This document shows, piece by piece, positions 17,958 through 51,500 of a stretch of 64,000 nucleotides of DNA (positions are counted from its first letter, which is position 1; every line of letters starts with the position of its first letter). Under the pieces are notes generated by a model that was not told the origin of the DNA, ran no database searches, and saw only the letters and a program-made list of their open reading frames with translations. The translations under genes and the position numbers were made by a program. Source of the stretch: an uncultured Gammaproteobacteria bacterium (GTDB lineage: Bacteria > Patescibacteriota > Microgenomatia > CAYQLK01); NCBI GenBank assembly GCA_964404855.1, contig CAYOLO010000001.1, positions 530,736 through 594,735 on the forward strand, in the 5' to 3' direction.

Positions 17958-17986
17958 TTGACAATAATTGAAGCTTATACTAGAAT
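17958..17986 (+). promoter_or_regulatory. sigma70-type promoter
   Basis: TTGACA - 17 nt - TAGAAT. Confidence 0.5.
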
Positions 17987-17989
17987 GCC

Positions 17990-18226
17990 TCAAAACGTTG
18001 AGTTGGGAGAATGGGCCCAACGAAGCTGTTAGGGCTACGTTGATTGGTGAATTAAATAGTAGCCAATACGGAATTCAACCGTTAAACAGAGTGGCCAATG
18101 TCACTAAATGTGGAGTTGGTTAAAGAGGTTGCTAGCTGTAAGGCTGGCAACGAAAGCAAGGTGGCAACACGATATAGATCGTCCTTGCAGGATTTACACG
18201 CGTAAGTTCTGCAAGGACGATTTTTT
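17990..18226 (+). promoter_or_regulatory. T-box-type riboswitch leader (putative) with antiterminator/terminator
   Basis: Stem III hairpin GUUGCUAGCU-GUAA-GGCUGGCAAC (18128-18151). AAGG-[UGGCAAC]-ACGAU-AUAG-AUCGU-CCUU (18158-18186) matches the T-box antiterminator layout. Overlapping terminator stem 18179-18190 / 18209-18220 plus U6. Confidence 0.55.
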
Positions 18227-18272
18227 GTTCTTTAACATCACCAAACAACTAAAAAGAAGGTAGGAAAGAAAA

Positions 18273-19610
18273 GTGATAACGAAGATTAGTTTACTAGGTC
18301 ATTACACTGCCAAGCAGGCAGCACGCGAAAAACTTTATGACCAAGTTGGTTATAAGGTTCCGCTTCTTAGCTTGTCTGCAGATCAGCGGCTTGGGATTGG
18401 GCCAATCGATCGAATTGTCAAAAGCGGCAAAAGTCTAACTTATGAGCAGGCCTATGGCGGCATGCTCTTGGTTTTGGCTGCCACCAACCAAATGATCGAG
18501 GCCGAACTACGAAGGGTATGGTCCGAATTCCCATCGTCGGAGGCTCTCAAGTACAAGGCTGTTAGTTTTTTGCAACTAATGGCTACCAAAGAGGCGCTTC
18601 AGTGTATTACCGCTGAAGAAGTGGCTGGGTGCGTTGCTGCAACCCTGCTAGATGTTGTGCCGCTTGATCTGACTGACGAGCCAATCGTCGAAACCTGTGG
18701 AATGGGTGGGGATCAGGGATTCCTAATTGGTGGCCGGCCGTTTAAGACTATCAATGTCTCAACGCTGACCTCGTTTGTGCTAAGTGCGCTCGGGCATCTA
18801 GTCGTCAAACACGGGTCGTATGGAAACACCACAGCCGTGGGATCCACTGATGCCCTAGACCTTCTGGGTGCTCGGACAACACAACAGAGTTTGAAGGAGA
18901 TTGAAACTCTCTTTGCGGCCACAGGGTACTACTACGCAGACGCGCACAACTTCAAAACAGTTCATGATTTGTCGCATCTGCTGGGTCACGAGACGATCAA
19001 CCACATCATTGGTCCGATGACTTTGCCGCTTCGCTTGAACCAGCCGATCTACAAGATCATGGGTGTGAACGATAAGGTGAGTCCTCAGACTGTCGCCCTC
19101 AGCTACCAGATCTTGGTAGAGAAAGGATTAATAAATCTAGTCAACGGTGCAATCGTTGCCGGCTTGGCCGATGACGTTTCCGGTCAGAACTTGGAAGAAT
19201 TGGGTTTTGCAAACCAGGTAATTCTGGATGAGCTTAGCCCAGCCAGCTCGGTTGTTGCGTTCATTCGCGCCGGCCGTTTCGTGGATCAGAAAATCATTAC
19301 TCCAAGAGACTTTGGAATAAGTTTGTCTTGGGATGATATTCTGGTTGATTCCGAAATCGCCAGCGTAAAACAAGCCAACTTGACTGCGTTGGAATCCGGT
19401 TCTGCTGGACATCCATTGCAGAGTTACTTGGCCATGAATGCCGCACTCGGACTTTTTGTCATCAAAGATTTGGGGGGACTTGATGACGACTCAGAGTGGA
19501 CAGAAAGGCTGAAGGTTCGATATCAGGAGTGCTTAGCGGTACTTCAGTCCGGAGCAGTTAGGGGGTTGGTCAAGAGTTATTCTGGTATATCGCGCAGAAT
19601 TAGTTTTTAG
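18273..19610 (+). CDS. trpD: anthranilate phosphoribosyltransferase-like (glycosyl transferase family 3)
   Basis: ETCGMGGDQG...INVST...VVKHGSYGNTTAVGSTDALDLLG matches TrpD GTGGDG/NxST/KHGNR...GSADxLEALG. GTG start with SD GAAGGTAGGA. ~60-aa N-terminal extension. GC-rich. Confidence 0.7.
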   Translation: MITKISLLGHYTAKQAAREKLYDQVGYKVPLLSLSADQRLGIGPIDRIVKSGKSLTYEQAYGGMLLVLAATNQMIEAELRRVWSEFPSSEALKYKAVSFLQLMATKEALQCITAEEVAGCVAATLLDVVPLDLTDEPIVETCGMGGDQGFLIGGRPFKTINVSTLTSFVLSALGHLVVKHGSYGNTTAVGSTDALDLLGARTTQQSLKEIETLFAATGYYYADAHNFKTVHDLSHLLGHETINHIIGPMTLPLRLNQPIYKIMGVNDKVSPQTVALSYQILVEKGLINLVNGAIVAGLADDVSGQNLEELGFANQVILDELSPASSVVAFIRAGRFVDQKIITPRDFGISLSWDDILVDSEIASVKQANLTALESGSAGHPLQSYLAMNAALGLFVIKDLGGLDDDSEWTERLKVRYQECLAVLQSGAVRGLVKSYSGISRRISF

Positions 19611-19620
19611 TGCGATATGG

Positions 19621-19659
19621 GGTCGTAGTTGAGTAAAATCAACTGCGGCCCTTTTTTTT
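19621..19659 (+). terminator. intrinsic terminator
   Basis: 12-bp stem (GGUCGUAGUUGA/UCAACUGCGGCC, with G-U pairs) followed by a T8 run. Confidence 0.6.
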
Positions 19660-19699: not shown

Positions 19700-20530
19700 C
19701 TATTTTTTGGCTTTACGAACAAACTCTTTTGCTTTTTTTCTAACCAGCCGATTTTGCCAAGGAAATAAATTAGGCTCAATTTCCTTATTAGAAACAGTAC
19801 CTTCTTTTAATGCTGTGCCGACAATAATGACGTCAGCATATTTTTTAAGTTCCGTAATGTTGATTTTGTCTGCACCACTGCCGACAATTATTGGCACTTT
19901 GGTTGTTTGGCGAGCTGATTCTAAATCATTTGTTAATGGTCGATCCCCTGTCCACTTGCCAGTGATAATTATTCCATCACTTCCCTCCTTTTCTGCTTCT
20001 TGGACGGCTTCTGAAAGAGGTCGCGGATTTAATAAAGTTGAGTGCTTGACTTGAACATCAGTAAAAAGGCAGATTTCTGTGGCATTATGATCAGCTTGGT
20101 ATTTTTTGATAGCTTTATGATTGGGATGAATAGTGAAACCGTACATGGTTTCGATTTTATCAACAAAAACAGGTATTCTTACAAAATCTAAATTTTGCTC
20201 ACTCGCAATATCAATGGCAGTTTTGTAGTCATTCCACAACACACATAATCCAATTGGTAAATAAGTAACTGTTTTAATTTTTTTGATTACTGCATTTAGC
20301 TGCTTCTTTGCCTTATCAGGAATAAATTCTGTATGAGGAATATCATAATTATTTTCGATTAAAATAGCATCAAAACCGGCTTCATTTAATACTAAAATAT
20401 CTTCTATGGCTAGCTTGGTAATTGTGTTTAATCCTGGGGAGTTGTCATAACCAATTAGTGGTGCAAGATGAACCATCCCAATTATATATGGGTGTTGTTT
20501 TTTAATTGAGTCTAAGAGTTTGTTCTTCAC
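19700..20530 (-). CDS. BtpA/SgcQ-family TIM-barrel protein (putative)
   Basis: N-terminal IGMVHLAPLIGYDNSPG resembles the BtpA family signature. Assignment from memory only. Confidence 0.5.
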   Translation of the reverse strand: MKNKLLDSIKKQHPYIIGMVHLAPLIGYDNSPGLNTITKLAIEDILVLNEAGFDAILIENNYDIPHTEFIPDKAKKQLNAVIKKIKTVTYLPIGLCVLWNDYKTAIDIASEQNLDFVRIPVFVDKIETMYGFTIHPNHKAIKKYQADHNATEICLFTDVQVKHSTLLNPRPLSEAVQEAEKEGSDGIIITGKWTGDRPLTNDLESARQTTKVPIIVGSGADKINITELKKYADVIIVGTALKEGTVSNKEIEPNLFPWQNRLVRKKAKEFVRKAKK

Positions 20531-20726: not shown

Positions 20727-21296
20727 TTGATAAAGGTTATTATGTTTGATTGGTTTGGAGTGTTGTGCTCTAAGGTTTTTCAAGACTGGGTAGATCAAAA
20801 TACTTTGGATCCGGAGGGGCTTCGGAAGTTGCGGAATCTGGCCGATCAATTGGATTTAGGTCGAATCAGTCTGGATGCCTTTTATGATTCGATTGGTACA
20901 GTCGTAAACAAATCGGGTTCGCAATGCGGAACCGAGCTCTACTCGATGGTTCGAATCGATGGGGAAATGAGCGAGATAGTTAGGCAATTGCGTAAGCAAT
21001 ATGTCGTTTCTGTTTTGTCTAATATCCATGAAGAATTCTTGGCTAGACTTCTTTCTGATCACCCAGACATTAATCCCGATGTGGTTATGACCAGTTCAGA
21101 GCTTGGAGCTCTTAAACCAGATCCGCTGATTTTTGAGCGGGCATGTGAGAGGCTCCGGGTTAGTGCCGGCGACATTCTATTTGTTGACGATTCGGAGCTT
21201 AATGTCTCAGCAGCCAGACGAGTAGGATTGTTGGGCATCCTTTTTACTACTCCGTCTGAGTTAAGGGCTGAACTAAAAATTAAAGGAGTACTTTAG
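20727..21296 (+). CDS. HAD-superfamily hydrolase
   Basis: TTG start with SD AGGAGAAGGA. Motif I-like VIMFDWFGVL. ...FVDDSELNVSAARRVG motif IV region. Confidence 0.65.
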   Translation: MIKVIMFDWFGVLCSKVFQDWVDQNTLDPEGLRKLRNLADQLDLGRISLDAFYDSIGTVVNKSGSQCGTELYSMVRIDGEMSEIVRQLRKQYVVSVLSNIHEEFLARLLSDHPDINPDVVMTSSELGALKPDPLIFERACERLRVSAGDILFVDDSELNVSAARRVGLLGILFTTPSELRAELKIKGVL

Positions 21297-21347: not shown

Positions 21348-21499
21348 AGCTTTTTTCTAATCCTTTTTAGAGAATAGCTTATAATTTTAAAATCACAATA
21401 TTATTGACAAACTATTCCAAGTATGCTAAATATGTTCCTCAAGAAGAAAGAAAGGATTGTTGGGACAGCTAGTCTAGTGACACGAAAGTGTCCAAAGGT

Positions 21500-21573
21500 G
21501 CAAGTGTGGTCCAATGGAAGGGTGTCGGTCTCCAAAACCGAAGATAGGGGTTCGATTCCCCTCACTTGTGCCA
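21500..21573 (+). tRNA. tRNA-Trp (anticodon CCA)
   Basis: Hand-folded cloverleaf. Acceptor GCAAGUG/CACUUGU. Anticodon loop CUCCAAA. T-arm AGGGG-UUCGAUU-CCCCU. Discriminator G. 3' CCA is encoded. Confidence 0.85.
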
Positions 21574-21650
21574 AAACACATAAGCGTTCGAGTCTGTCGA
21601 GCCAACAACGAAGCGGGAGTTATAGCAACTACCTATTTGACCTTCTGAGC

Positions 21651-21686
21651 GCCCAGTAGTTGATTTCAACTGCTGGGCATTTTTTT
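21651..21686 (+). terminator. intrinsic terminator between tRNA-Trp and trpS
   Basis: 12-bp stem GCCCAGUAGUUG/CAACUGCUGGGC with a 4-nt loop, followed by a U7 run. Confidence 0.7.
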
Positions 21687-21738
21687 AGCTCTTTAACACC
21701 ACCAACAACAAATTCAAAATTGCAAAGGACAAGGAAAG

Positions 21739-23271
21739 ATGATCAATCTAGGCGTGGAACCGATGCCGTTGGAGCTCGCTCGTTTAAGGCTAGATGGTCT
21801 TGACGGCGAGATTATTACGCTAGTCGCTGCTCGACTGAAAATGGTGCAGCGTGACAGCGTTTTTCTGCAGAAGCAGATACAAGATCTGGTTAATTTGGGC
21901 ATGAGCCCAGGTTTTGCAGAAGCCTATTATCGTCTTCTGACGGAAGAAGGATTGAGGTCTCAGTTCGAGACACAGGACGTTGGGCAACTGGACGAGGTTT
22001 TTCAGCTCAACGAAATCGACCGCCAGCTTCTGGCTTTGGTTGTGGAGAGGATGGATATTTCCATCGCTTTAACCAAGACCAAACTGAACAACAACATCGC
22101 CATCGTTCATCCTGAACGGGAAGAGGCAGTTCTTCAAGGTCGTGCAGAGAAAGCTCAGAATCTGGGAGTTAACGCTGACTTCACGAAACGTTTGTTCCGC
22201 CTCCTCATGGATGAGGGTGTGCGAATACAACGGGAAGTGTGGCAAACGTCAACCCTCAAAAAAAGGATTCTGACGGGAGTACGTCCAACTGGACCGCTGC
22301 ACCTTGGTCATTATGTCGGTGCTCTGAAAAGTTGGCTTGAGTTTCAAGAGACTTACGAGTGTCTTTTTCTCATCGCTGACTATCAGGCACTGGGAAGCCA
22401 CATCGATAAGCCGGAGCTGATCCGAGACTCTGTCTTCCAGGTCACACTTGACTGGTTGGCTGTCGGTCTCGATCCCAACGCGTCGTCGTTCTTTGTTCAG
22501 AGCTACATTCCGGAGCATGCTGAGCTTGCACTGCTGCTTAGTATGCTGATTCCCTGGAAACGGCATATTGGCAACCCGACACTCAAAAGCGAAATGGCAG
22601 ACATGGAGTCTGAACATAACGCCATGAGTCTCGGATTCGTCAATTATCCCGCTAGTCAAGCGGCCGATATTCTTCTAATGAAGGGCGATCTGGTCCCTGT
22701 AGGTGAGGATCAGCGTCCGCACATCGAGGAAACTCGGCGAGTGGCACGGGAATTCAATCGACGGTACGGCGAAAACCGTACTATCTTTCCAGTTCCGAGA
22801 ATTTACACTGGAGAAGTATCGCGATTGGTGGGTCTGGATGGTGATGCGAAGATGAGCAAAAGCAAGGGCAACACCATTGATTTGCGTGATGACCCTGAAA
22901 CAGTTCGAAAGGCCGTAATGCGGATGTTCACCGACTCAACCCGTCTCCGCGCGACCGATCCTGGTCACGTGGAGGGAAATCCAGTCTTCATCTACCACGA
23001 TATCTTCAATCCTGACGTGGATGAAGTTGCAGACTTGAAGGCGCGCTATGTTCTCGGCAAGGTCGGCGATGTTGAGGTGAAGGTCAAATTGGCTAAAGCC
23101 CTCAACCAGATGCTCGATCCTATCCGCGAGCGGCGTGCGTACTTCGAGGCGCATCCAACACAAGTAAAGGATGCGCTGATTGCAGGCACAGATCGGGCAA
23201 GGAAAATTGCCGAAGAAACAATGAGAGAGGTTCGCGAAGCGATGCGCATCACGCGCTACGCCGAAGGTTAA
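21739..23271 (+). CDS. trpS: tryptophanyl-tRNA synthetase with ~180-aa N-terminal extension (two AroQ chorismate-mutase-like helical repeats)
   Basis: C-terminal ~330 aa carries HIGH (TGPLHLGH) and KMSKS (KMSKSKGN) of class-I TrpRS. The N-terminus has LELARLRLDGLDGEIITLVAARLK and IDRQLLALVVERM...HPEREEAVL...RLFRLLMDEGVRIQRE. SD AAGGA. GC-rich. Confidence 0.8.
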   Translation: MINLGVEPMPLELARLRLDGLDGEIITLVAARLKMVQRDSVFLQKQIQDLVNLGMSPGFAEAYYRLLTEEGLRSQFETQDVGQLDEVFQLNEIDRQLLALVVERMDISIALTKTKLNNNIAIVHPEREEAVLQGRAEKAQNLGVNADFTKRLFRLLMDEGVRIQREVWQTSTLKKRILTGVRPTGPLHLGHYVGALKSWLEFQETYECLFLIADYQALGSHIDKPELIRDSVFQVTLDWLAVGLDPNASSFFVQSYIPEHAELALLLSMLIPWKRHIGNPTLKSEMADMESEHNAMSLGFVNYPASQAADILLMKGDLVPVGEDQRPHIEETRRVAREFNRRYGENRTIFPVPRIYTGEVSRLVGLDGDAKMSKSKGNTIDLRDDPETVRKAVMRMFTDSTRLRATDPGHVEGNPVFIYHDIFNPDVDEVADLKARYVLGKVGDVEVKVKLAKALNQMLDPIRERRAYFEAHPTQVKDALIAGTDRARKIAEETMREVREAMRITRYAEG

Positions 23272-23310: not shown

Positions 23311-24390
23311 GTGATTTTGTGGCCCTTTTTCTTGAAAGGAAAAACGGTGAAAAAATCCATAGGGGGATGGCTCAATTCAGTAGCGGTTTTGGCGGTAATA
23401 TCCGGATTCGCTGCCGGTATTTACAGCTTGTCTGACACCCATGTGGTTGTCAGGTATTTCACTGACTCGACAGACAAAACAATCGGGTCATTGATCTACG
23501 TCGTCGTCGGTTCTTGGATCGGCTGTCTCTTATTTTTGCCTCAAGGGCAATTTCTGGGGCGCTGGCTAAGCCGTGATCAATTCCAGGGATGGCAAAGGCC
23601 TCTCGGAAGGGATTGGTTGTATGTTTGTGGCGCTGGTTTTACCGGAGCCGGAGCAACCTTTTTCTATCTTTTAGGTTTGAGCCGCTATGGCCCATCGCGA
23701 GTAGTGGTACTTTCCTCTGCGGTGCTGGTCTTGCTGCTCATGCTTGATTTTGTTAGGAGGAGGATAGATCTGTCCATGACTTTTCCAGCCTCAATCGTTT
23801 TCTTGGGAATACTATTGTCGAGTATTAACTTCGAGGATGGTATCAAGATCTCGGTAGGGCTGATTCTAATCGTGCTGATTGCACATAACTTTCTGTACGT
23901 GATCTCTATTTGGTTTTTCCAGGCTGGATCACGACGAATGGACTCAATCAATTTCACCTTCTGGCGATTTCTGTCTTTCGCAGTCTTTGCCACAGTCTTT
24001 GTCGTAATTTGGGTCGTTGTCGCCGGTAAGGTTGGAATTTTCCAGGATGTTCTTTTTGGGGGATTTACCGGTGCGCTGCCCTTTATTCTTTTTACTATGA
24101 TCTTTGGGTTCCTTGAGGTTGTCTTAGAATCTCAAGCTCGAAGAGACGGTGGAAAGATGTCAATGGTGAGCTTTCTAAAGCAGAGTGCCATCATTCCGGC
24201 GATGTTTTTGACCTACCTGTTGAACTGGATCTGGGTGGGGTCCCTCGGTGACGTTGCAACTGATACTCAATCGGTTGTGATCAGAGTCGGTGCAGCAGCG
24301 ATTGTTCTCTTGGGACTTTACCTCTTGACCAGACGAAAGCTGGTTGAGGAGCAGGAAATAGAAAGCGAGGAGATATTAGTCGTCGTTTAG
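23311..24390 (+). CDS. 10-TM integral membrane protein, possible DMT/EamA-type transporter
   Basis: Hydrophobicity pattern of two 5-TM halves. GC-rich. 40 nt downstream of trpS. Confidence 0.45.
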   Translation: MILWPFFLKGKTVKKSIGGWLNSVAVLAVISGFAAGIYSLSDTHVVVRYFTDSTDKTIGSLIYVVVGSWIGCLLFLPQGQFLGRWLSRDQFQGWQRPLGRDWLYVCGAGFTGAGATFFYLLGLSRYGPSRVVVLSSAVLVLLLMLDFVRRRIDLSMTFPASIVFLGILLSSINFEDGIKISVGLILIVLIAHNFLYVISIWFFQAGSRRMDSINFTFWRFLSFAVFATVFVVIWVVVAGKVGIFQDVLFGGFTGALPFILFTMIFGFLEVVLESQARRDGGKMSMVSFLKQSAIIPAMFLTYLLNWIWVGSLGDVATDTQSVVIRVGAAAIVLLGLYLLTRRKLVEEQEIESEEILVVV

Positions 24391-24492: not shown

Positions 24493-25230
24493 TTGAAATA
24501 TCTTCAGATGATTGTCGTTCAAAAACAAGATAAAAAAATTTCAGTATTCTCAACATATTCGACTGATAAAATAATTAAAGATGGTCGAGTAACCACAAAT
24601 ACTGGTGGGCCTCTATTTTTTATCGAAAAGGCTCTAGAAAATTGCAGCGTTCCGTATGTTTCGCACCATGGAGAGACAGTAAATGTTGAGATTAAGGTAA
24701 ATAAAGATGGAGAGGTTGGTCGTGTAATTGGTATACAAAATAAAACTAAAAAAGTGGAAGACTTAAATGCCAAATTTCTTCTGATATCAACAATTTTTAA
24801 TGAATGGAATCTGCAAAAAATCGGCAAATCGAAAGCTAAAATTTTTGTGGATATACAAGGGTTTGTTAGGGGTGTTAATAAATTTGGGGCTAAAGTAGTA
24901 TGGGAAGACAGTATCAAATACTCTAAGCAAGTATATTGTCTAAAAGGAACAGAGGAGGAAATGAATTATTTGCCTAAAAATGTTTATGAAGACCAAAAAA
25001 ATCGCTTACTTGTAATAACTAAAGGTAAAAAAGGGGTTGAATGGTATTTAAAAGGAAAAAAATATTTAGCACTGATACCAAGAGAAATAAAATCTCCAAA
25101 TGCTGTGGGGGCGGGAGATACTTTTTTTGGGTATTTTGTGGCAAATATTTACAAAGGCAAAGGAATAAAATTTTCGATAGATAATGCTATAAGTAAAACT
25201 TCAGAATTTTTGGAGTCGAAAAATTATTAA
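24493..25230 (+). CDS. PfkB-family carbohydrate kinase-like (short)
   Basis: C-terminal NAVGAGDTFFG (PfkB signature 2). 245 aa. Confidence 0.5.
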   Translation: MKYLQMIVVQKQDKKISVFSTYSTDKIIKDGRVTTNTGGPLFFIEKALENCSVPYVSHHGETVNVEIKVNKDGEVGRVIGIQNKTKKVEDLNAKFLLISTIFNEWNLQKIGKSKAKIFVDIQGFVRGVNKFGAKVVWEDSIKYSKQVYCLKGTEEEMNYLPKNVYEDQKNRLLVITKGKKGVEWYLKGKKYLALIPREIKSPNAVGAGDTFFGYFVANIYKGKGIKFSIDNAISKTSEFLESKNY

Positions 25231-28460: not shown

Positions 28461-31400
28461 TTAGTTAGTTAGTCCTCCTAGGAATCCAAATATTTGACTA
28501 AGGTTGCTGATAACAAGATTTAGTGCGTTATCAGTTGCCTTGGGTGTGATTGTGACAGTGTCGATGGAATTACCAACATTAGCAGCTGAGTCTTTTGATA
28601 ATGCTCTTAAGTGATAAACCTTCGATGGTGATAATCCAGATATAACAACTAAATGGTTGGTTGTCCTTGAAGTGTCCTCTTGAGTTTTTTGAGAATATGT
28701 CGTGCCTGTTCCCTCACCAAATTCGACTTGGCTGGTTGATGCCTCATCGGTGTTCCAGCTGATAACAAGTTGGGCTGTCGCTTCTTGATTATTGTTGCCT
28801 GCCGTAGTTGACCCTTCAATGTTAAGTTCCGTAATTTGAGGTGCTCTGGTGTCTGTAGCAGTTGTGACCTTTTGAGGTTCAGAGACTGCTTCGTTGCCTG
28901 CTTTGTCTCTGCCTTTGACCAGAAGTGTGTAGTTGGTTTGAGGAAGCAGGTTTTTGATTATCATTTTGTGTTCTCCGGTAATTAAGGCTATGTTGATTTC
29001 GTCTTTGGCATCCGATGGGGAGTTTTCTGGATAGTAAGTGACGATAGATGAAGTATCAGTATTAGTAGACCATGTGACGAGCAAGGTCGATTGGGCTGTT
29101 CCATTGACTTGCTGTACTCTAACATTGGCAATTTTGGGTCTAGGAAGAGTTTCGAAACTGAGAATATTTCCTTCATATTCAGCTGACTCTGTGTCTAGGG
29201 TGTTAATCTTGTAAAAATACTTTGTACCGTCTTCTAGTTCTTCTAGCTCGGTATTGTAAGTGGTTGAAACAGTCGAAGTCGAAATTTCTTTCACTCCGCC
29301 AAATGCTGAGGTTTTGCCATAGTAAATTTTGGCTTTGCTTGCACCAGTAACCGTAAATTCCAGAATCGCAGAGGTAAGAGAGGAGGATTTTACTTTTGGA
29401 TCGGTAACCGTTGGAGCGGGTTCGGTGGTAAAAGTTTTTTCCGCACTAAATCCGGTATTTCCATCTTCGTCAGTCCACTTGGCTTTGTAGTAGTAAGTGG
29501 TACCTGGCGTTAGATTGGTGATATTGATTGTGTGAGCGGTCACTTGGGTTGAATTACTAGGTTCTTCAGAAAAATATGATCCAGATGCTGTTCCGTAGCT
29601 GACTTTGGAGTCGCTGGTTCTGTCCGTTGACCAGGTAATCGTTGCTTTTTTGGTAGTTACACTGGTACTGACTGGACCAGATGATAGCGCTGGGGCGTCG
29701 GTGAATTTGCCGGTTGGTATTAAATCAACGGCTGAAGTGTAAGCACCACAATTGCTAACACTGTCACAGGCTCTGACTTTGTAATAATGAGCTGCTTGCG
29801 TGAGTCCCGTGTCGACATAAGCAATACCAGATGTTGTGGCGATTTCAGTATAGGTAACATCGTCAGTTGAGTGAAAAATTTCGTAATTTTCAATCCCAGA
29901 TCCAACATCGCTTGGAGCTTCCCAGCTGATTGCAAGTTTCCAAGAGCTTGTGCTTTTGACAGAAACGTCTGCAATATCAATGTTACCTGGAATGCCTGGT
30001 GCTGAAGTGTTGGCGGTAAAAGTTACAGAAGCATAAACTCCGTAGTTAATGACACCTCCAAGGTCTTCGGGATTTTTTGCAGAAACATAAAACGTATTTA
30101 ATCCTTGTTGTGTGGCAAACGAGTCAGCGGAAAGAGACGTTGCCCCTGCACTGGTGAAGGTACAAGAATTTTCTGATGGTAGCGTGTTGACTGTATAGCA
30201 ATATGTCAGGTCGGATGCGCTACCTGAGTAGCTACTTGGTGCCTGCCATGAGAAGCCAAAAGAGTTGGTGGTGTTGGTCGATGGGGTGGCGGTAAGCAAC
30301 TGAGGAGCTGAAGGTCCTTCGCCTGCGAAATAATAGTTGACGGTTACACAAGCGCTGGCGGTATTGCCCGCATTATCGACGGTTCTTAGGTAGAAAATAT
30401 TTGCACTGCTTCCTTCGAGGTATGCTGCATCAGGAATGTTGACGGAGTTGGAGGTAGTAGAGGTCCATCCGGAAACACTGCTGCAGTTGGCGCTACTTGC
30501 GCCGGTTTGATATTGGTAACCAAACGATCCGCCGCTTAGTCCGGAGTGTGCGTCACTTGCTCCGCCTTCGGCGCCGGCGGCTGCCCAAGAGAATGTAAAG
30601 TCATTGGTTGTTGCGAATCCTGCTGGATTGACCGATACAAGCGATGGGTTGGTTGGAGATGTGGAGTCGTATTTATATATGAAGGCAGCGTAAATACTTG
30701 AGGTGTTGCCAGCATTATCTGCAGATTTGATTCTCAGGTAGTATGTGGTTCCGCTACTCATTCCACTTGCTGTATAAGTTGTGCCTGCTTGAAAACTGCC
30801 AGCAGTTTGAGGATCAGCGGTATTGTCGGTTCCGTAATATACGTAATATCCGGAAACACCAGATCCGCCGGTGTCTGTTGCGCCACTCCAACTAAAGTAA
30901 GGACCTGTGTGTTTGTACCAAGTGTTAGTTGTAATTGAGGACCCACCTGATTGGTTGAGTGCCGTTAGTGTGTCGGGTGGTGTTGGCGCTGTGCTATCGG
31001 CTGTGGCGGTAAGAGTGACCGAATTAAGGGTAACTAGTTGATTGCCGTTTCCGTCTAGTACGCCTTGCCAGACAAAACCTCCTGTGCTTACTGGAAATGT
31101 GGAGATATTGGTGTTAATCACAGCTGCTGTATTTGTTTGACTTGTTGAGTTACTGGTAACCCATCCCGAGTTGTAATATTTCCAAGTTGATCCGTTGTCG
31201 TTACTAAGTCTGTAGGTGATTGTGCCTCCGTTTGTAGTTTCGTCTGCAGTAAATCCATCCCAAGAAAGAATTCCAGAAGTTCCATAAGCTGTAGTTGGTT
31301 TGACTGTTTGAGCTGAAGCGGTATATGGGGTGGTATTGAACTCGGTTCTTCTGATATTGCTGATTCTGACTTCGTCGATTCGGCCGTCAAGAAAACCCTG

Positions 31401-34400
31401 ACCAATCCCAGTTTCGTTGCCGCCAAACTTCGTACCAATTAATACTGGATGTGCTGTATCAAGAAGTGTTAAAGATGTTGATAAAGAATTATCAAGCACC
31501 CCGTCGATATACAATCGCATTGTTGTTCCGTCGTATGTAGCTGCAATGTGATGCCAGTTAGTATCCTGAGAAGATGTTGTTGATTGCAAAACAGAGTTGT
31601 TTCCGTAAGCCCAAATAGTGGCATCTGCGTTTGCGGTGTCGCCAAGACCTGCATAAAGCTTGCCTTTATAAACTGACATAGAGGCTACACTTTCATTGAC
31701 TGTGGCCCAACCATTATTGAGGCTATCTCCACCGACTTTAACCCAGCTTGAATCATTCCAGCGCCAGACTTCACCATCACCAGCGGTTAAACCTAAGCCG
31801 GCATATAGATCGCCATTGTAAACAGTTAAATTACGGACTCTTTCGTATGTTGCAGCTGTCCAACTATTATTAAGCCCATCGCCACCGACTTGTGTCCAAA
31901 TTCCACTTGAGGTAGTGTATTTCCAAACTTCTGCGTCGTCAGCGGTAAGGCCAAGTCCAACATATAATCCACCATTGTAGGGGACTAATTGTTCAATTCT
32001 TTCATAAACAGTGTTCCAACTGGAGTTAAGGCCGTCGCCACCCATTTTGGTCCAGCCACTAGTTACTGTGCAACTCCCAATTGTACAGGTCCAAACTTCA
32101 GCATCGCCGGCTGTTATACCGAGACCAACATATAAACTATTTCCATAGACTGCCATACTAATAACTTGTTCAAAACCAGCTGCCCAGCTTTGTCCGCCGG
32201 TGCCTGTGCCATCTCCTCCAATTTTGGCCCAAGTGTCAGCTGTGCCATCGTATGCCCAAACTTCGGCTTCTCCGGCGGTGTCGCCAAGACCAGCAATTAG
32301 TTTGTCGCCGGCAACAGCCAGGGATCGGACATTGTCATAGTTAGTTGTCCAGCCTAACTTAAGACTGTCTCCGCCGATTTGAGACCAGACTGTACCGTTC
32401 CATTTCCAAACTTCGGCTTCGTTGGCTGATAATCCTAAAGCAACATACAGATCTCCGCGATAATCGATCATATGGTTAACGATTTCGTAGGTGTTAGCTG
32501 CCCAGCTAGAGTTGAGACCTTGCCCGCCAATCCTTGTCCAGCTTGTACCGTCATATCGCCAAACTAAAGCATTACCTGCTGTACTTAATCCAGTGCCAGC
32601 ATATAAATAGCTACCGGAAATTGTCATTGTTTCAACACTTTGCAGGTTGGTATAACCCCAAGAGTTGTTGATATAGTTACCACCGATTCTGTTCCATATT
32701 GAACCATTGAATCGCCAAACTTCACCGGATGTGGCTGTACCCTGAAGTCCGACATAAACGTTACTATCAAAAACAGTGATTGTTCTGATATTGGTGTGAG
32801 TGTTGGTAAAACCAAGAGCAGTTCCGTCGCCAGTTCCGTCACCACCGATTTTTGCCCAGGTTGTACAAGTTGCAGCAGTACAACTCCAAACTTCGTTGTC
32901 TCCAGCCGTATTACCTAATCCAGCATAAAGCGTTGATCCTGAAATTGTCACCGTCCAGACTTGTTCATAGGTTGTGTCTGCCCAACTAGAGTTAGTTCCG
33001 TCACCACCGATTTTTGTCCAGGTGGTACAACTACTTGTAGTGTCGCATCTCCAAACTTCGGCTTCTCCGGCGGCACTGTTTCCAATACCTGCAAAAAGAT
33101 AAGTCCCATCATTAGCAAGAGAAGTAACAATTTCATAAGTTGCGTCTGCCCAACTAGAGTTAATCGCATCTCCGCCTATTCTGGTCCAAGTTGAACCTCC
33201 CCATCGCCAAACTTCAGCATCGCCAGCACTATCTCCCAATCCAATGTGTAATGTGGTGCCAACGACCGTCATACTCCTGACGGCTTCGAAGTTGGTGTTC
33301 CAGCCTGAGTTCAGGTTGTCTCCGCCGATTTTTGTCCAACCAGATGTAACAGTACAGCTGCCGATTGTACAGCTCCAAACTTCGGCATCGTTTGCGCTTG
33401 ATCCTAGACCGGCGTAGAGTGTGGTCCCTGAAACGGCTAAAGCAGAAACATATTCGTATGTATTAGTTGCCCAGCTTTGGCCAGCTGATCCGCTTCCATC
33501 TCCACCGATTTTTGTCCAGGTTGAGCCGTTGTATTGCCAAACTTCACCTTCCCCTGCAGTAAGTCCTAGTCCAACAAAAAGGTTAGTTCCGTCAGTTGCC
33601 ATAGCATAAACTTCGTCATAGGTGGCATTGGTCCAGCTAGAGTTGATTCCATCTCCGCCAATCATGGACCAGACTGTACCATCCCACATCCAGACTTCTG
33701 CATCAGACTGCCCATTACCTAATCCAACATACAAGTCACCACTAATTTCGACTGATGATTCCACAATTAATTTACCGTTAAGATCCCAGCTTGCACTGCC
33801 GTTCATTTCGGTTCCAGTTGATATTCCGCCAGCCACCTGTGTCCAGCTGTCAGCATTACTTGGTGCTAATTCGTAGGTAAGTTTACCTTGAACTCTATCG
33901 TAGTAGAGCTGGTACTCGCCTTTATCGATAATGCCTTGGCGCTGTTGATTTGAGTTAGCGGAATATGCAGTATCCAGCTTGACCCAGGCTTCGAGGGTGT
34001 GAGACTGTGACAAAGATAGTGAGGTTGAGTCAGATACTGAGACATTACTTAGTGCCCCATTAAATTCGATTGAGTTATTGAGGTTCCCAGTAGTGTATGT
34101 TGCATTACTTGCTGTGGCTGCATTGGCATTTGAACTAGAATCGACAGGATTGCCAGAACTTTCATCAAAGTGAAAAAGAGCGGCAGTATTTGCGTCTGAG
34201 GCGTAGTTTTGGACTGCAAGTTTGGCACTATTGCCGGAAACGGTGATCATATTAGAGTCAGAAAGAGTGTAATCTCCCCCAACTGAAAAATCCCATTCTT
34301 GAGTAAGATCAGAGGCAAAAATTTTAGGAATAATTGTGTTGAGAGTTGTGTAAGCTCCAAATCCAAAACCAATACCAATACAAATTACTCCAAAAAGGTT

Positions 34401-34598
34401 GAACTGCCATTTGGCAATCGTAATTTTTTTCGTAAACAGAGTCTTGATTGTTTGAGGGTTTTTATTGATAACTGCGTTGCCAAGTTTTGGGATTAGGAAG
34501 AATGTTTTTGAAAAATGGTTTTTGGTACTAATTTTGAGGCCAAAAGTTTTGGACTGGGCTGGTTTATTTTTAATGTGGTTTATCGAGTCGTTAGTCAT
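28461..34598 (-). CDS. giant (2045 aa) signal-anchored cell-surface protein with LamG-like domains, a tandem-repeat array and FN3 domains
   Basis: TM at aa ~67-89. ConA/LamG_3-like region (ALFHFDE...TLEAWVKLD...QGIIDKG). ~14 tandem repeats of VW.W.G..W..IGGDG.NSSW...YE.V......LY.GLG.TAGDAE. Second LamG-like segment (...RLYIDGVLDNS...FLDGRIDEVRISN). At least 6 FN3-like modules. Confidence 0.8.
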   Translation of the reverse strand: MTNDSINHIKNKPAQSKTFGLKISTKNHFSKTFFLIPKLGNAVINKNPQTIKTLFTKKITIAKWQFNLFGVICIGIGFGFGAYTTLNTIIPKIFASDLTQEWDFSVGGDYTLSDSNMITVSGNSAKLAVQNYASDANTAALFHFDESSGNPVDSSSNANAATASNATYTTGNLNNSIEFNGALSNVSVSDSTSLSLSQSHTLEAWVKLDTAYSANSNQQRQGIIDKGEYQLYYDRVQGKLTYELAPSNADSWTQVAGGISTGTEMNGSASWDLNGKLIVESSVEISGDLYVGLGNGQSDAEVWMWDGTVWSMIGGDGINSSWTNATYDEVYAMATDGTNLFVGLGLTAGEGEVWQYNGSTWTKIGGDGSGSAGQSWATNTYEYVSALAVSGTTLYAGLGSSANDAEVWSCTIGSCTVTSGWTKIGGDNLNSGWNTNFEAVRSMTVVGTTLHIGLGDSAGDAEVWRWGGSTWTRIGGDAINSSWADATYEIVTSLANDGTYLFAGIGNSAAGEAEVWRCDTTSSCTTWTKIGGDGTNSSWADTTYEQVWTVTISGSTLYAGLGNTAGDNEVWSCTAATCTTWAKIGGDGTGDGTALGFTNTHTNIRTITVFDSNVYVGLQGTATSGEVWRFNGSIWNRIGGNYINNSWGYTNLQSVETMTISGSYLYAGTGLSTAGNALVWRYDGTSWTRIGGQGLNSSWAANTYEIVNHMIDYRGDLYVALGLSANEAEVWKWNGTVWSQIGGDSLKLGWTTNYDNVRSLAVAGDKLIAGLGDTAGEAEVWAYDGTADTWAKIGGDGTGTGGQSWAAGFEQVISMAVYGNSLYVGLGITAGDAEVWTCTIGSCTVTSGWTKMGGDGLNSSWNTVYERIEQLVPYNGGLYVGLGLTADDAEVWKYTTSSGIWTQVGGDGLNNSWTAATYERVRNLTVYNGDLYAGLGLTAGDGEVWRWNDSSWVKVGGDSLNNGWATVNESVASMSVYKGKLYAGLGDTANADATIWAYGNNSVLQSTTSSQDTNWHHIAATYDGTTMRLYIDGVLDNSLSTSLTLLDTAHPVLIGTKFGGNETGIGQGFLDGRIDEVRISNIRRTEFNTTPYTASAQTVKPTTAYGTSGILSWDGFTADETTNGGTITYRLSNDNGSTWKYYNSGWVTSNSTSQTNTAAVINTNISTFPVSTGGFVWQGVLDGNGNQLVTLNSVTLTATADSTAPTPPDTLTALNQSGGSSITTNTWYKHTGPYFSWSGATDTGGSGVSGYYVYYGTDNTADPQTAGSFQAGTTYTASGMSSGTTYYLRIKSADNAGNTSSIYAAFIYKYDSTSPTNPSLVSVNPAGFATTNDFTFSWAAAGAEGGASDAHSGLSGGSFGYQYQTGASSANCSSVSGWTSTTSNSVNIPDAAYLEGSSANIFYLRTVDNAGNTASACVTVNYYFAGEGPSAPQLLTATPSTNTTNSFGFSWQAPSSYSGSASDLTYCYTVNTLPSENSCTFTSAGATSLSADSFATQQGLNTFYVSAKNPEDLGGVINYGVYASVTFTANTSAPGIPGNIDIADVSVKSTSSWKLAISWEAPSDVGSGIENYEIFHSTDDVTYTEIATTSGIAYVDTGLTQAAHYYKVRACDSVSNCGAYTSAVDLIPTGKFTDAPALSSGPVSTSVTTKKATITWSTDRTSDSKVSYGTASGSYFSEEPSNSTQVTAHTINITNLTPGTTYYYKAKWTDEDGNTGFSAEKTFTTEPAPTVTDPKVKSSSLTSAILEFTVTGASKAKIYYGKTSAFGGVKEISTSTVSTTYNTELEELEDGTKYFYKINTLDTESAEYEGNILSFETLPRPKIANVRVQQVNGTAQSTLLVTWSTNTDTSSIVTYYPENSPSDAKDEINIALITGEHKMIIKNLLPQTNYTLLVKGRDKAGNEAVSEPQKVTTATDTRAPQITELNIEGSTTAGNNNQEATAQLVISWNTDEASTSQVEFGEGTGTTYSQKTQEDTSRTTNHLVVISGLSPSKVYHLRALSKDSAANVGNSIDTVTITPKATDNALNLVISNLSQIFGFLGGLTN
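31570..33850 (-). repeat. tandem coding repeats (~156 nt / 52 aa, about 14 copies) inside the giant gene
   Basis: Periodic protein motif VW(R/K)W.G..W..IGGD..NSSW....YE.V......LY.GLG.TAGDAE read from the translation. Coordinates are approximate. Confidence 0.6.
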
Positions 34599-48528: not shown

Positions 48529-51500
48529 ATGAAATATTTAAACAAAATTACCTCTAGAACAAAGAGGATTTTTGTAAACCCTACAATTGAACACATAAAT
48601 CCCTTGAAAAAGGGCTCTATGATCGGTGCAGGTGTAAAAAAGCTCGATAAAGAGTTTATTACCCATACAACACTAATTCACCACAAATCAGCCGTGCACA
48701 CATTCATTTTGTGGCAAAAACTGTTTTTAATGGGGTTAATAGGGATATTTTTAATTGGATTAGCTTTAAATTGGCTGCTTACGTTACAAATATTTGTTGC
48801 ATTTTTAACAGTTATTTATTTTATCGATGTGCTTTTTAATTTGTTTTTAGTCGTAAAAAGCCTACATTTACCACCTGAGCTTGATTTTGATGATAAGGAA
48901 TTAGCCAAAATTAAAGAAAAAGATCTCCCGATTTATACAATCCTCTGCCCAATGTACAAAGAGGCACAAATCATCCCCTCGTTTCTTGAAGCAATTTCAA
49001 AACTTGATTGGCCGAAAAATAAGCTTGATGTACAACTTCTGCTTGAAGAAGATGATTTAGATAGTATTCATACGGCAAAAAATTGGGGTCTACCTAGTTA
49101 TGTCAGAGCGATTATTGTTCCTCATTCACAACCAAAAACCAAACCAAAGGCTTGTAATTACGGATTAAATATCGCTAAGGGTGAATACTTAGTTATTTAT
49201 GATGCTGAGGATATTCCGGACCCAAAACAGCTCAAAAAGGCATATTTAGCCTTTCAGACTGTTGATAAAAATGTCGTTTGTTTGCAGGCTAAGCTTAATT
49301 ATTTCAATCCACACCAAAACTTTATTACTCGATTATTTACTGCTGAGTACTCTCTTTGGTTCGATGTTGTGTTGCCTGGCTTGCAAGGAATTAATACTAA
49401 TATTCCTCTTGGAGGCACAAGTAATCATTTTAGAATCGATGACCTTAAGACTTTAGAAGGTTGGGATCCTTTTAACGTGACCGAAGATTGTGATTTGGGG
49501 GTTAGGCTATTTATGGAGGGCAAAAAAACCGCGGTAATCAACTCAACGACTCTTGAGGAAGCAAATAGTAAGTTTAAAAATTGGCTAAGACAAAGATCAC
49601 GATGGATTAAGGGATATATGCAGACTTATCTGGTCCATATGCGTGATCCCTATCAATTAGTAAAGAAACAAGGAATTCATGCGCTTTTCTTCAATTTAAT
49701 TGTCGGTGGAAAAATCGCGTTTATGTTTATTAATCCGTTTTTGTGGTTAGCCACAATTGGATATTTTGTTTTACATGCGCAACTCGGGGCAATTATCGAA
49801 TCTCTCTACCCTTCTTATATTTTTTATATGGCTTTGTTCAGCTTGGTTTTTGGAAATTTTTTGTACATGTTTTATTACATGATTGGATGTGCCAAGAGAG
49901 GCCACTGGTCGGTTATTAAGTATGTGTACCTTATTCCCTTTTATTGGATTATGACTTCAATTGCGGCAACTATTGCTCTACAGCAGTTGTTTTTCAAGCC
50001 TCATTATTGGGAAAAAACCGTTCATGGATTGCATCTAAGTAACCAAAAAGAGAAAGAACTGGCGGTTGATATGCCGGTATTTATTGATCAAGTAATAGAT
50101 AAAGAAAGAGCGGAAGGCTTCCCTGTTCGAATTATAGGAATCATTGTTTCGATTATCGGTCAACGAAAAGTGATTTTAAGTGGTGGAATGTTGGTTCTTG
50201 CTGGTATTTTTTCAAACTTTGTTAATTTTTTCTTCAACGCCTATCTTGGTAGAAGTTTGAGTTTTGAAGAGTTTGGAGTTTTAAGTTTATTAGGTAGTAT
50301 TTTGTTTATTTCTTCAATACCAATAAATGCTTTAGGATCAACAATTGCACACAAGACAGCGTTTCTTTTTGGAAAACATTCAAAATCATTTGCGCGCTCT
50401 AATTTGGCTTATTATCTAAGATTTTCTATTACATCAGCAATATTAACAACAATTATTTGGATTTTGCTTATTCCCTCGTTGACATCCTACTTTCAACTAG
50501 GGTCATCTATGGCGCTTATTTTATTCACTCCAGTGTGGTCAATTGGACTATTTGGTAGTACTGTGGGTGGTTTTATTGATGGAACCTTGTCTTTCGGTGT
50601 AGCAGCTATAGCATTGGCAGTTGAGGCGGTAACTAAACTTGGATTAGCGATTTTATTTGTTTGGATGGGATTATCTGATTATGTGTTTTTGGCAATTATT
50701 ATTGGATTATTTGTTCATTTGATTATAAATTTAATCTTTGTTCTAAAAGATAAAACGCTTTCAGATGAGCATATCTCAGGTCATTTTGAATTTAAATTTT
50801 ATTTGGCCTCATTTATTAGTGGTTTATCTAAACTAAGTTTTTTAAGTTTGGATGTTATTTTGGCGAAACATTATTTATCACCAGTTGAATCTGGTCAGTA
50901 CGCTCTTCTTAGTTTGACTGGTAAAATTGTATTTTTTGCTGGAACACTTTTTGCTCCTTTTATGCTTCCAATTGTTTCCAAAAAGTTGGGCGCGAACCAG
51001 TCAAGTGTAAAGGTATTTAAATATATTTTTATTTTAACCTTAGTTCCAGTATTACTTGCTTATATTGGACTGGGAGTATTTAGTCAAATCACCATTCCAT
51101 TATTATTTGGTGAGAAAGCTAAAGTTATTATTCCATTCGCCTCAATTTATTTATTTTCAATCGTACTATTTTCTTGTCTTAATCCAGTAATCAGTTACTT
51201 CCAGGCCAAAAGAGATTACATTTTTATTTATCAAGGCATGTTTACCAGCATAATTTTATATATCTTAATTCATTTTTTTCACAGAAGCCTTTCGGAGTTT
51301 GTGTCAATTATTTTTATAGCATCGTCGTTGAATACCATGTTTGCCATTTTGCTTTATATCTTTAATTCACAGGTTAAGTCATTAATTAGTAATTTTAGAG
51401 ATTTAATCGATTTGGCGTTTTCACGGTTTACGAGACAACGAACAAAAGAAAAAGATAAATTACAAATCCTAATTTTTAATTGGAGAGATACAAAACATGT

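Follow-up and report, generated by a model that had tools for sequence, protein, structure and literature searches.

A probable tRNA-Trp T-box leader, overlooked by standard annotation, upstream of a TrpD-like gene in Patescibacteriota

The leader of the TrpD-like gene

The stretch of DNA analysed here, 64,000 nucleotides from an uncultured bacterium assigned to the Patescibacteriota (hereafter the window), carries a gene for a TrpD-like protein, a homologue of anthranilate phosphoribosyltransferase (AnPRT). The gene is flanked downstream by genes for a BtpA-family barrel and a HAD phosphatase, and a tRNA-Trp gene and a gene for tryptophanyl-tRNA synthetase (TrpRS) follow about 3 kb away. The leader in front of the TrpD-like gene (17958-18272) is a T-box overlooked by standard annotation. 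It is very probably a Trp-specific riboswitch that governs the TrpD-like gene through transcription attenuation. Its layout was drawn from the Rfam alignment, the comparative data and direct reading of the sequence, and its elements are given below in window coordinates, together with the tRNA gene and what each assignment is based on.

17958-17986, + strand: sigma-70-type promoter, TTGACA (17958-63), 17-nt spacer, TAGAAT (17981-86); consensus match, same in relatives
17994-18041, + strand: ultrashort Stem I, a three-way junction; isolated fold, covariation
17994-98 / 18037-41, + strand: Stem I closing helix, AACGU / ACGUU; 97 % paired, compensatory changes
18000-01 and 18022-23, + strand: kink-turn (K-turn)-like GA pair, 5' GA and 3' GA; Rfam alignment, relatives
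18002-07 / 18016-21, + strand: specifier hairpin of 6 bp, GUUGGG / CCCAAC; 91 % paired, compensatory changes, recovered by RNAalifold
18008-15, + strand: specifier apical loop of 8 nt, AGAAUGGG, which reads A-GAA-UGG-G
18012-14, + strand: specifier UGG (Trp), with G18015 as the conserved purine 3' of it; conservation across leader types
18024-36, + strand: variable side hairpin; comparison of leaders
18043-48 / 18062-67, + strand: Stem II, AUUGGU / GCCAAU; Rfam alignment, 91 % paired, double changes in 4 of 5 pairs, recovered by RNAalifold
18049-51 and 18058-61, + strand: Stem II S-turn, GAA ... AGUA; Rfam alignment
18068-71 / 18079-82, + strand: Stem IIA, ACGG / CCGU, then an F-box-like CCGUUA; Rfam alignment, RNAalifold, covariation
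18073-76 with 18089-92, + strand: possible IIB pseudoknot, AUUC with GAGU; test on unaligned sequences
18094-99 / 18115-20, + strand: extra hairpin, GCCAAU / GUUGGU, then G100/A114, then UCAC/GUGG; 79 % paired, double changes in 5 of 6 pairs
18128-37 / 18142-51, + strand: Stem III, loop GUAA; Rfam alignment, RNAalifold, covariation
18122-27 and 18152-55, + strand: purines flanking Stem III, AAAGAG and GAAA; Rfam alignment
18156-18188, + strand: antiterminator, with A1 (18156-61 / 18183-88) and A2 (18169-73 / 18178-82); Rfam alignment, RNAalifold, covariation
18162-68, + strand: T-box bulge of 7 nt, UGGCAAC, whose UGGC (18162-65) complements the tRNA 3' end GCCA; sequence
18178-18226, + strand: intrinsic terminator, a stem of at least 20 pairs (18178-18221) and U6; -33.1 kcal/mol
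21500-21573, + strand: tRNA-Trp, the presumed effector; anticodon CCA, G1.U72, G73, CCA encoded

At the Rfam gathering thresholds, the window yields six tRNAs only and no T-box match. A covariance-model search had been proposed as a check in the original prediction, which was made from the letters alone. In a permissive search of the leader, RF00230 (T-box) matches over the full model (positions 1-219) with 54 bits and an E value of 3e-11. Searched window-wide, the E value is 5e-9, and this is the sole non-tRNA match among all 4227 Rfam families. The full-length match was thus obtained, but its score lies under the curated gathering cut-off of 93 bits. The low score results from the truncated Stem I, for which 37 nt are aligned where the model has 88 (about 50 nt shorter). 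The alignment also has an insertion of 28 nt, placed after IIA/B and before Stem III. By itself, the leader folds much more stably than shuffled versions of it, with a minimum free energy (MFE) z-score of -8.5.

Covariance model, covariation and thermodynamics together bear out the T-box-type leader that was originally proposed, with its promoter, Stem III, UGGC-bulge antiterminator and competing terminator. The promoter TTGACA-17-TAGAAT agrees with the consensus at 11 of 12 positions, and TTGACA-17-TAxAAT stands at an equal distance in the leaders of two related loci, L002 and L041. Transcription would start near 17993, about 7 nt past the -10 box.

In isolation Stem I folds to a three-way junction of -14.2 kcal/mol and ends in the 8-nt specifier loop; neither the window Stem I nor that of its 38 relatives has a distal elbow-docking platform (AG bulge and distal loop), and the window leader has no Stem I S-turn. 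The two GA dinucleotides flank the specifier hairpin as in the consensus UGA...GA. The 3' GA reads AA in several relatives, and in the window the side hairpin breaks the non-bulged strand. This side hairpin is present in L001, L002, L041, L035, L086 and L159 with unrelated sequences and is absent from the other leaders; it is therefore an optional structural insert.

Conservation of the leader and identity of the specifier

Orthologous loci came from an exact-protein look-up and from scanning species-representative genomes. The T-box core AGGUGGNACC is located 105-255 nt upstream of the TrpD-like gene in about 25 of them, and with a class-specific covariance model 26 of 41 loci gave a single T-box each, in every case heading the gene or its operon. 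T-box control of a TrpD-like gene had been considered unusual; it turns out to be the rule for the gene family across the candidate phyla radiation (CPR) and no oddity of one genome. The long-Stem-I leader of Candidatus Uhrbacteria L027, with 94.3 bits, is the only version reaching the RF00230 cut-off, the reduced versions scoring 31-60 bits. Because L027 stands ahead of an orthologue and passes this cut-off, the whole leader series is tied to the T-box family.

When metagenome contigs were scanned for a pattern combining the apical loop with the T-box core, 117 stretches came up, most of them chance matches, and about 40 passed a stem filter. One that passed (L064) was excluded, as it is without a T-box core. 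The covariation set, an alignment of related leaders of the kind that the original prediction had also suggested, comprises 38 non-redundant leaders of the window's architecture, the window and the earlier loci being counted in. In this set the T-box helices covary and the specifier is conserved. Unguided RNAalifold recovers the specifier hairpin and Stems II, IIA, III, A1 and A2, with compensatory double changes in 22 of 29 pairs. For the full drawn structure, 82 % of the cells are standard pairs, against 25-47 % when the partners are slid by 1-3 columns; double changes occur in 36 of 47 pairs, and none of 500 shuffles reaches any observed measure. A1 is 98 % paired and A2 85 %, with double changes in all 5 pairs of A2. 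Stem III, the 18128-18151 hairpin with the GNRA loop GUAA, had been recognised as such from the sequence; the Rfam model aligns it in the same way, and it has double changes in 9 of its 10 pairs.

The MAFFT alignment mis-registers the K-turn GA between subgroups with a 5-bp and a 6-bp hairpin, and it also misplaces IIB, so that its pseudoknot rows (43-57 % paired) are uninformative. For this reason IIB was examined on unaligned sequences. Across the class it comprises 5 bp at a constant offset, and compensatory variants are numerous.

Between IIA/B and Stem III lies the extra hairpin, with the consensus CC(G/A)AUGUC...GGAGU(C/U)GG. It is common to all CPR leaders, with long, intermediate or short Stem I, and is without counterpart in the Rfam T-box consensus. 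The extra hairpin might offset the lack of an elbow contact.

Three kinds of Stem I precede the same gene family: a canonical long one, with K-turn, AGUA S-turn, AG bulge and distal loop; an intermediate one, whose small internal loop has A/G-U-UGG-G as its 3' strand; and the apical-loop kind of the window. Each kind has UGG plus one base (a purine, except in WWE3), placed either immediately before the closing helix, on its 5' side, or within the terminal loop. The specifier strands across lineages are AUUGGG, GUUGGG, UAGUGGG, AAUUGGA, ACAUGGG and GUGGU. The triplets GAA, AAU, AUG and GGG of the loop are each lost in several lineages, and UGG alone is conserved across the Stem I kinds. Since no other loop triplet is conserved in this way, the specifier is, on comparative grounds, UGG 18012-14, with G18015 as the conserved purine. 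The original prediction had left the specifier open between this triplet, UGG 18045-47 and AAU-A. The first of these stands. UGG 18045-47 was rejected as it is base-paired inside Stem II, and AAU is not conserved.

A closing helix of Stem I at 17994-18001/18075-18083, also proposed earlier, does not hold. The single-sequence MFE fold draws it as well, but it is 71 % paired on the alignment without covariation, and 218 of 500 shuffles equal it; moreover, 18079-82 belongs to Stem IIA. Its complementarity arises because the two segments are each conserved for other reasons, and the helix 17994-98/18037-41 is preferred. The heptamer ACGUUGA occurs twice, at 17995-18001 (Stem I 5' strand) and at 18037-18043 (Stem I 3' strand and linker). 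Each of them is the complement of UCAACCGU, a segment of Stem IIA (18075-18082), and this is why the MFE fold of the single sequence contains a different long-range helix. An alternative fold through these segments, which does not covary, is conceivable in the window's clade.

The loop by itself leaves the reading frame unfixed, so that AGAAUGGG could be read as GAA (Glu), AAU (Asn), AUG (Met) or GGG (Gly) by a T-box specific for another tRNA. In bacteria, tRNA-Glu and tRNA-Asn also usually have G73. Only UGG, however, is conserved at the specifier position, the competing triplets having been lost as described. The genes downstream of the leader class encode TrpRS, TrpE and TrpD, and the linked tRNA is tRNA-Trp. 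A specificity for another tRNA is therefore highly improbable.

The distribution of the class is as follows. The leader precedes the TrpD-like gene in 16 non-redundant cases, TrpRS in four (L048, L086, L140, L141), TrpE (anthranilate synthase component I) in L087 and a canonical-length TrpD in L056. It also precedes genes for an AstE/AspA-type deacylase, PPDK_N-domain proteins, a B3_4-domain protein and several unknowns. The deacylase is predicted to be under T-box control in L100, L161 and L022, where it is T-box-headed.

The tRNA-Trp encoded in the window ends in G73-CCA, which complements the bulge UGGC 18162-65. Of the 27 tRNA genes found in the related loci, tRNA-Trp accounts for 22, which are distributed among 21 of 40 loci. 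Of 23 tRNA-Trp copies, 21 carry G73, and all bulges read UGGC (19) or UGGU (6), either able to pair with G73. The conserved UGG and purine, the TrpRS, TrpE and TrpD genes downstream, the linkage of the gene family to tRNA-Trp and the match of UGGC to G73 support tRNA-Trp as the probable effector. This tRNA, encoded 3.2 kb downstream, had already been suspected from the UGGC bulge, which calls for G73 and a GCCA end; the specifier, the regulon and the linkage now back that suspicion.

Expression platform, proposed mechanism and comparison with known T-boxes

The segment AAGG-[UGGCAAC]-ACGAU-AUAG-AUCGU-CCUU (18158-18186) was correctly read in the original prediction as a T-box antiterminator, in agreement with the Rfam alignment and the covariation. 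With two further pairs (18156-18188), its free energy is -9.7 kcal/mol. In its 5' arm the terminator reuses the antiterminator's 3' half, made up of the 3' strands of A2 and A1, and the two folds are mutually exclusive. A competing terminator of 12 bp followed by U6 had been described; the terminator, its U6 and the overlap stand, but the stem is longer, with at least 20 pairs at 18178-18221. A strong hairpin with a U-run that reuses the 3' strand of the antiterminator is found in 35 of the 38 leaders, and in the other three this arrangement is present in a weaker form. With a terminator at the end of 35 of the 38 leaders, control is, to judge from this architecture, transcriptional.

The literature links a short Stem I whose specifier is apical to translational control (PMC7583486, PMC7778990, PMC11297988), and it could accordingly be asked whether the leader is a sequestrator-type T-box like that of actinobacterial ileS, whose hairpin mainly hides the ribosome-binding site (RBS). 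This is very unlikely for the window leader. The hairpin is a textbook intrinsic terminator (at least 20 pairs, -33 kcal/mol, U6), it is conserved with its U-run in the relatives as stated above, and the RBS (18256-66) lies outside it: the terminator ends about 30 nt before the RBS and 46 nt before the GTG start.

A near-identical sequence follows both terminators of the region, GUUCUUUAACAUCACCAAACAAC at 18227-18250 after the T-box and AGCUCUUUAACACCACCAACAAC at 21687-21712 after the terminator that follows tRNA-Trp. Its core CUUUAACA is kept in L002. This repeat could be a shared 5'-UTR element or the trace of a duplication.

For the Trp-specific T-box, the following mechanism is proposed. 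Stem I would form almost immediately after the transcription start about 7 nt past the -10 box. The K-turn-like junction with its 6-bp hairpin and the 8-nt apical loop A-GAA-UGG-G would display the Trp codon, and the anticodon CCA of tRNA-Trp would pair with UGG. Since a distal platform for docking the elbow is missing, it is presumably the Stem II S-turn, placed by the K-turn and the IIA/B pseudoknot, that clamps the codon-anticodon helix, as in the short-Stem-I ileS T-boxes. With uncharged tRNA, G73-C-C-A would pair with the bulge UGGC and stabilise the weak antiterminator (-9.7 kcal/mol), allowing the polymerase to read through. With charged tRNA, the terminator (-33 kcal/mol) would capture the 3' strands of A1 and A2, and transcription would stop at the U-tract.

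Transcriptional T-boxes have a long Stem I with an elbow-binding motif, whose mutation abolishes readthrough, while the short or 'ultrashort' Stem I with apical specifier is known from translational, mostly actinobacterial ileS leaders (PMC7583486, PMC7778990, PMC11297988). The K-turn, Stem II's S-turn and the IIA/B pseudoknot become essential when the elbow contact is missing (PMC7583486). Structures are available for the M. tuberculosis and N. farcinica ileS T-boxes (6UFG, 6UFM; cited in PMC7583486). The description of the actinobacterial class used here follows the same review, PMC7583486, which summarises Sherwood et al. 2015.

Several points weigh against the proposed riboswitch. The leader scores 54 bits, under the RF00230 threshold of 93. 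The general need of transcriptional T-boxes for an elbow-binding distal motif, the disabling of which abolishes readthrough (PMC7583486), leaves the means of a fast enough tRNA capture unexplained here. IIB has just 3-4 bp in the window's clade and is there, by itself, indistinguishable from chance. The bulge ends in AAC where ACC is usual. Finally, two WWE3 loci have an A73 tRNA-Trp opposite a UGGC bulge, giving an A-C mismatch. These two tRNA genes are located in L029 (8290-8363) and L032 (9481-9554), and the specifier strand there is GUGGU, with U instead of a purine after UGG.

The missing elbow platform, the sub-threshold score, the atypical bulge and the weak IIB would also fit a decayed T-box remnant, in which the distal Stem I was lost together with productive tRNA binding, leaving a constitutive leaky terminator or a leader that is otherwise regulated. 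Compensatory substitutions nevertheless maintain every T-box helix in dozens of lineages. The loop AGAAUGGG is identical between orthologues whose proteins are only 39-43 % identical (L009, L035), and specifier and bulge still fit the co-located tRNA-Trp. Decay is thus very unlikely, and a working Trp-specific T-box remains the preferred interpretation.

The leader shares with the class I transcriptional T-boxes (RF00230; Bacillus tyrS, trpS and glyQS) the UGGN bulge between A1 and A2, the exclusive terminator, Stem III with its flanking purines, the Stem II S-turn, IIA/B, the K-turn-type GA and the specifier-purine arrangement. It differs from them by a Stem I about 50 nt shorter (37 against 88), a specifier in the apical loop instead of a side bulge, the absence of the Stem I S-turn, AG bulge and distal loop, the extra hairpin, and a score under the Rfam cut-off. 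With the actinobacterial ileS T-boxes it has in common the short Stem I, the apical-loop specifier, a K-turn-like motif, the retained Stem II S-turn and IIA/B, and the same discriminator logic. Unlike them, it has an intrinsic terminator instead of a Shine-Dalgarno sequestrator, a Trp rather than an Ile specifier and a Patescibacteria/CPR host, as well as the clade's optional side hairpin (three-way junction) and the extra hairpin before Stem III. The leader resembles a union of an actinobacterial, translational-type decoding half with a Firmicute, transcriptional-type expression platform.

A further comparison is provided by the long-Stem-I T-boxes of Candidatus Uhrbacteria (L027, L028, L033, L034). 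These have the same gene family, UGG, extra hairpin, Stem III and antiterminator/terminator as the window, but a full Stem I with K-turn, AGUA S-turn, AG bulge and distal loop. The window leader looks like a reduced derivative within the same series.

The literature search returned no paper on T-boxes in CPR/Patescibacteria, although a mention of the short-Stem-I terminator type is possible in primary papers beyond the searched literature. Reviews associate the long Stem I and elbow docking with transcriptional control through a kinetic argument, a fast tRNA capture being needed before the polymerase reaches the terminator, and the short apical-loop Stem I with a slower, reversible translational control. 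That pairing meets a natural counter-example in a widespread, covarying class with a short decoding arm and a strong terminator. With scores of 31-60 bits against a cut-off of 93, such leaders escape annotation pipelines based on Rfam.

The TrpD-like gene and the Trp island

The genes of the region, where a conserved Trp island surrounds the TrpD-like gene, are the following.

18273-19610, + strand: TrpD-like phosphoribosyltransferase homologue, 445 aa, GTG start; homology, structure model
19619-19652, + strand: terminator of the TrpD-like gene
19700-20530, - strand: BtpA-family barrel; weak similarity to GGGP synthase, similarity to TrpA not significant
20727-21296, + strand: HAD phosphatase; neighbour of the TrpD-like gene
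21739-23271, + strand: TrpRS with an N-terminal chorismate mutase (CM_2) domain; CM_2 at residues 89-164, E 1.6e-17
23311-24390, + strand: EamA-like transporter; part of the Trp island
24493-25230, + strand: short PfkB-like kinase; found in 12 of 41 loci

The TrpD-like protein has 171 relatives, and the named ones come from Parcubacteria, Paceibacteria, Azambacteria, Uhrbacteria and the 'Patescibacteria group'. Homologues are also encoded on contigs labelled Woesearchaeota (L020, L038), where the T-box was not found. The AlphaFold2 (AF2) model has a predicted local distance difference test (pLDDT) score of 91.9, and the top 50 PDB structure matches are all AnPRT, with a TM score (on the target) near 0.85 and an identity of about 20 %. 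The reading of the gene as an anthranilate-phosphoribosyltransferase homologue with an N-terminal extension is in keeping with these matches and with a helical extension of about 65 residues seen in the family. The family also has an 8-residue insertion after GGD. Identities as nucleoside phosphorylase, AMP phosphorylase or TrpD2 were considered and are unsupported, all sequence and structure matches being to TrpD proper.

The protein shares with TrpD (AnPRT) its fold and the motifs GxGGD, KHG and DE. The phosphoribosyl pyrophosphate (PRPP) and Mg motifs GMGGD, KHGS and DE, which correspond to GTGGD, KHGN and DE in TrpD, are invariant in the TrpD-like family. It departs from TrpD by the low identity, a score of 97 bits against the cut-off of 199 for the TrpD equivalog TIGR01245, the N-terminal extension, the GGD insertion, the absence of a trp operon and the loss of a basic residue. 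In the TrpD motif G-x-(R/K)-T-x-F-N, the basic residue contacts the anthranilate carboxylate. Its position is taken by an invariant glutamate, Glu240 (HETINH), in 33 of 33 aligned family members. Because of this invariant Glu, the sequence suggests a different acceptor substrate for the TrpD-like enzyme.

The gene had been described as a lone one with no other trp genes nearby. It is indeed monocistronic in the window, and the adjoining BtpA and HAD genes are separately transcribed. It is not isolated, however: these two are its partners, and the tRNA-Trp gene and the chorismate-mutase-TrpRS fusion are located 3.2-3.5 kb downstream, which contradicts the second part of that description. Among the 41 loci, the TrpD-like gene co-occurs with BtpA in 37, with TrpRS in 25, and with the AstE/AspA-type deacylase and the PfkB-like kinase in 12 each; the deacylase is absent from the window. 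TrpD-like, HAD and BtpA, in this order, form a single T-box-headed operon in L045/L046 and in L043, and some TrpD-like homologues are fused to HAD.

As the module would be induced on Trp starvation, its control argues for a role of TrpD-like, BtpA and HAD in tryptophan supply. The riboswitch thereby serves as a functional label for a CPR-wide module (TrpD-like, BtpA and HAD, often with TrpRS, tRNA-Trp, the AstE/AspA-type deacylase and the PfkB-like kinase), which is predicted to be on when tRNA-Trp is uncharged. Such a label offers a handle on how the presumed-auxotroph CPR bacteria get tryptophan. More broadly, and tentatively, the CPR could have a T-box lineage of their own, so far undescribed, which acts co-transcriptionally without the elbow contact and maybe compensates for it via the Stem II clamp and the extra hairpin. 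Its Trp-starvation regulon would have as its core the TrpD-like protein with an altered acceptor site, the BtpA barrel and HAD, and may represent an unrecognised route of tryptophan supply or salvage.

The CM_2-TrpRS fusion is common to only a handful of close relatives (P0121-P0126, P0158). Its TrpRS catalytic domain is 62-67 % identical to enzymes of the Chloroflexota, a phylum with T-boxes already known. The 98 %-identity cluster of the window TrpRS includes MBP6979721.1 of a Candidatus Curtissbacteria bacterium (Patescibacteria group, Microgenomates), and the window's organism is assigned to Candidatus Curtissbacteria on this basis. In six related loci, a fusion of CM_2 and a methyltransferase is encoded beside the TrpD-like gene (e.g. 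L004, 3195-4325).

No second T-box was found in the spacer between tRNA-Trp and TrpRS or elsewhere in the window. The tRNA-Trp gene itself apparently lies inside the TrpRS leader (21400-21738), which consists of a promoter-like TTGACA at 21406, tRNA-Trp (21500-73), a spacer, a terminator at 21652-86 with U7, and the open reading frame (ORF). This segment has no Rfam family match except the tRNA. The window and L002 share a conserved spacer of about 60 nt after tRNA-Trp, GCGGGAGUUAUAGCAACUACCUA...CUUCUGA. A possible antiterminator would form through pairing of CAACUAC (21627-33) with GUAGUUG, which lies in the 5' arm of the terminator 21652-86. In other CPR loci, TrpRS is directly headed by a T-box.

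Over the window as a whole, the GC content is uneven: 40-45 % from 16 to 36 kb, as against 29-30 % from 1 to 8 kb and from 52 to 56 kb. Very large ORFs of 2045 aa (28461-34598, - strand) and 1365 aa (48529-52626) are also present.

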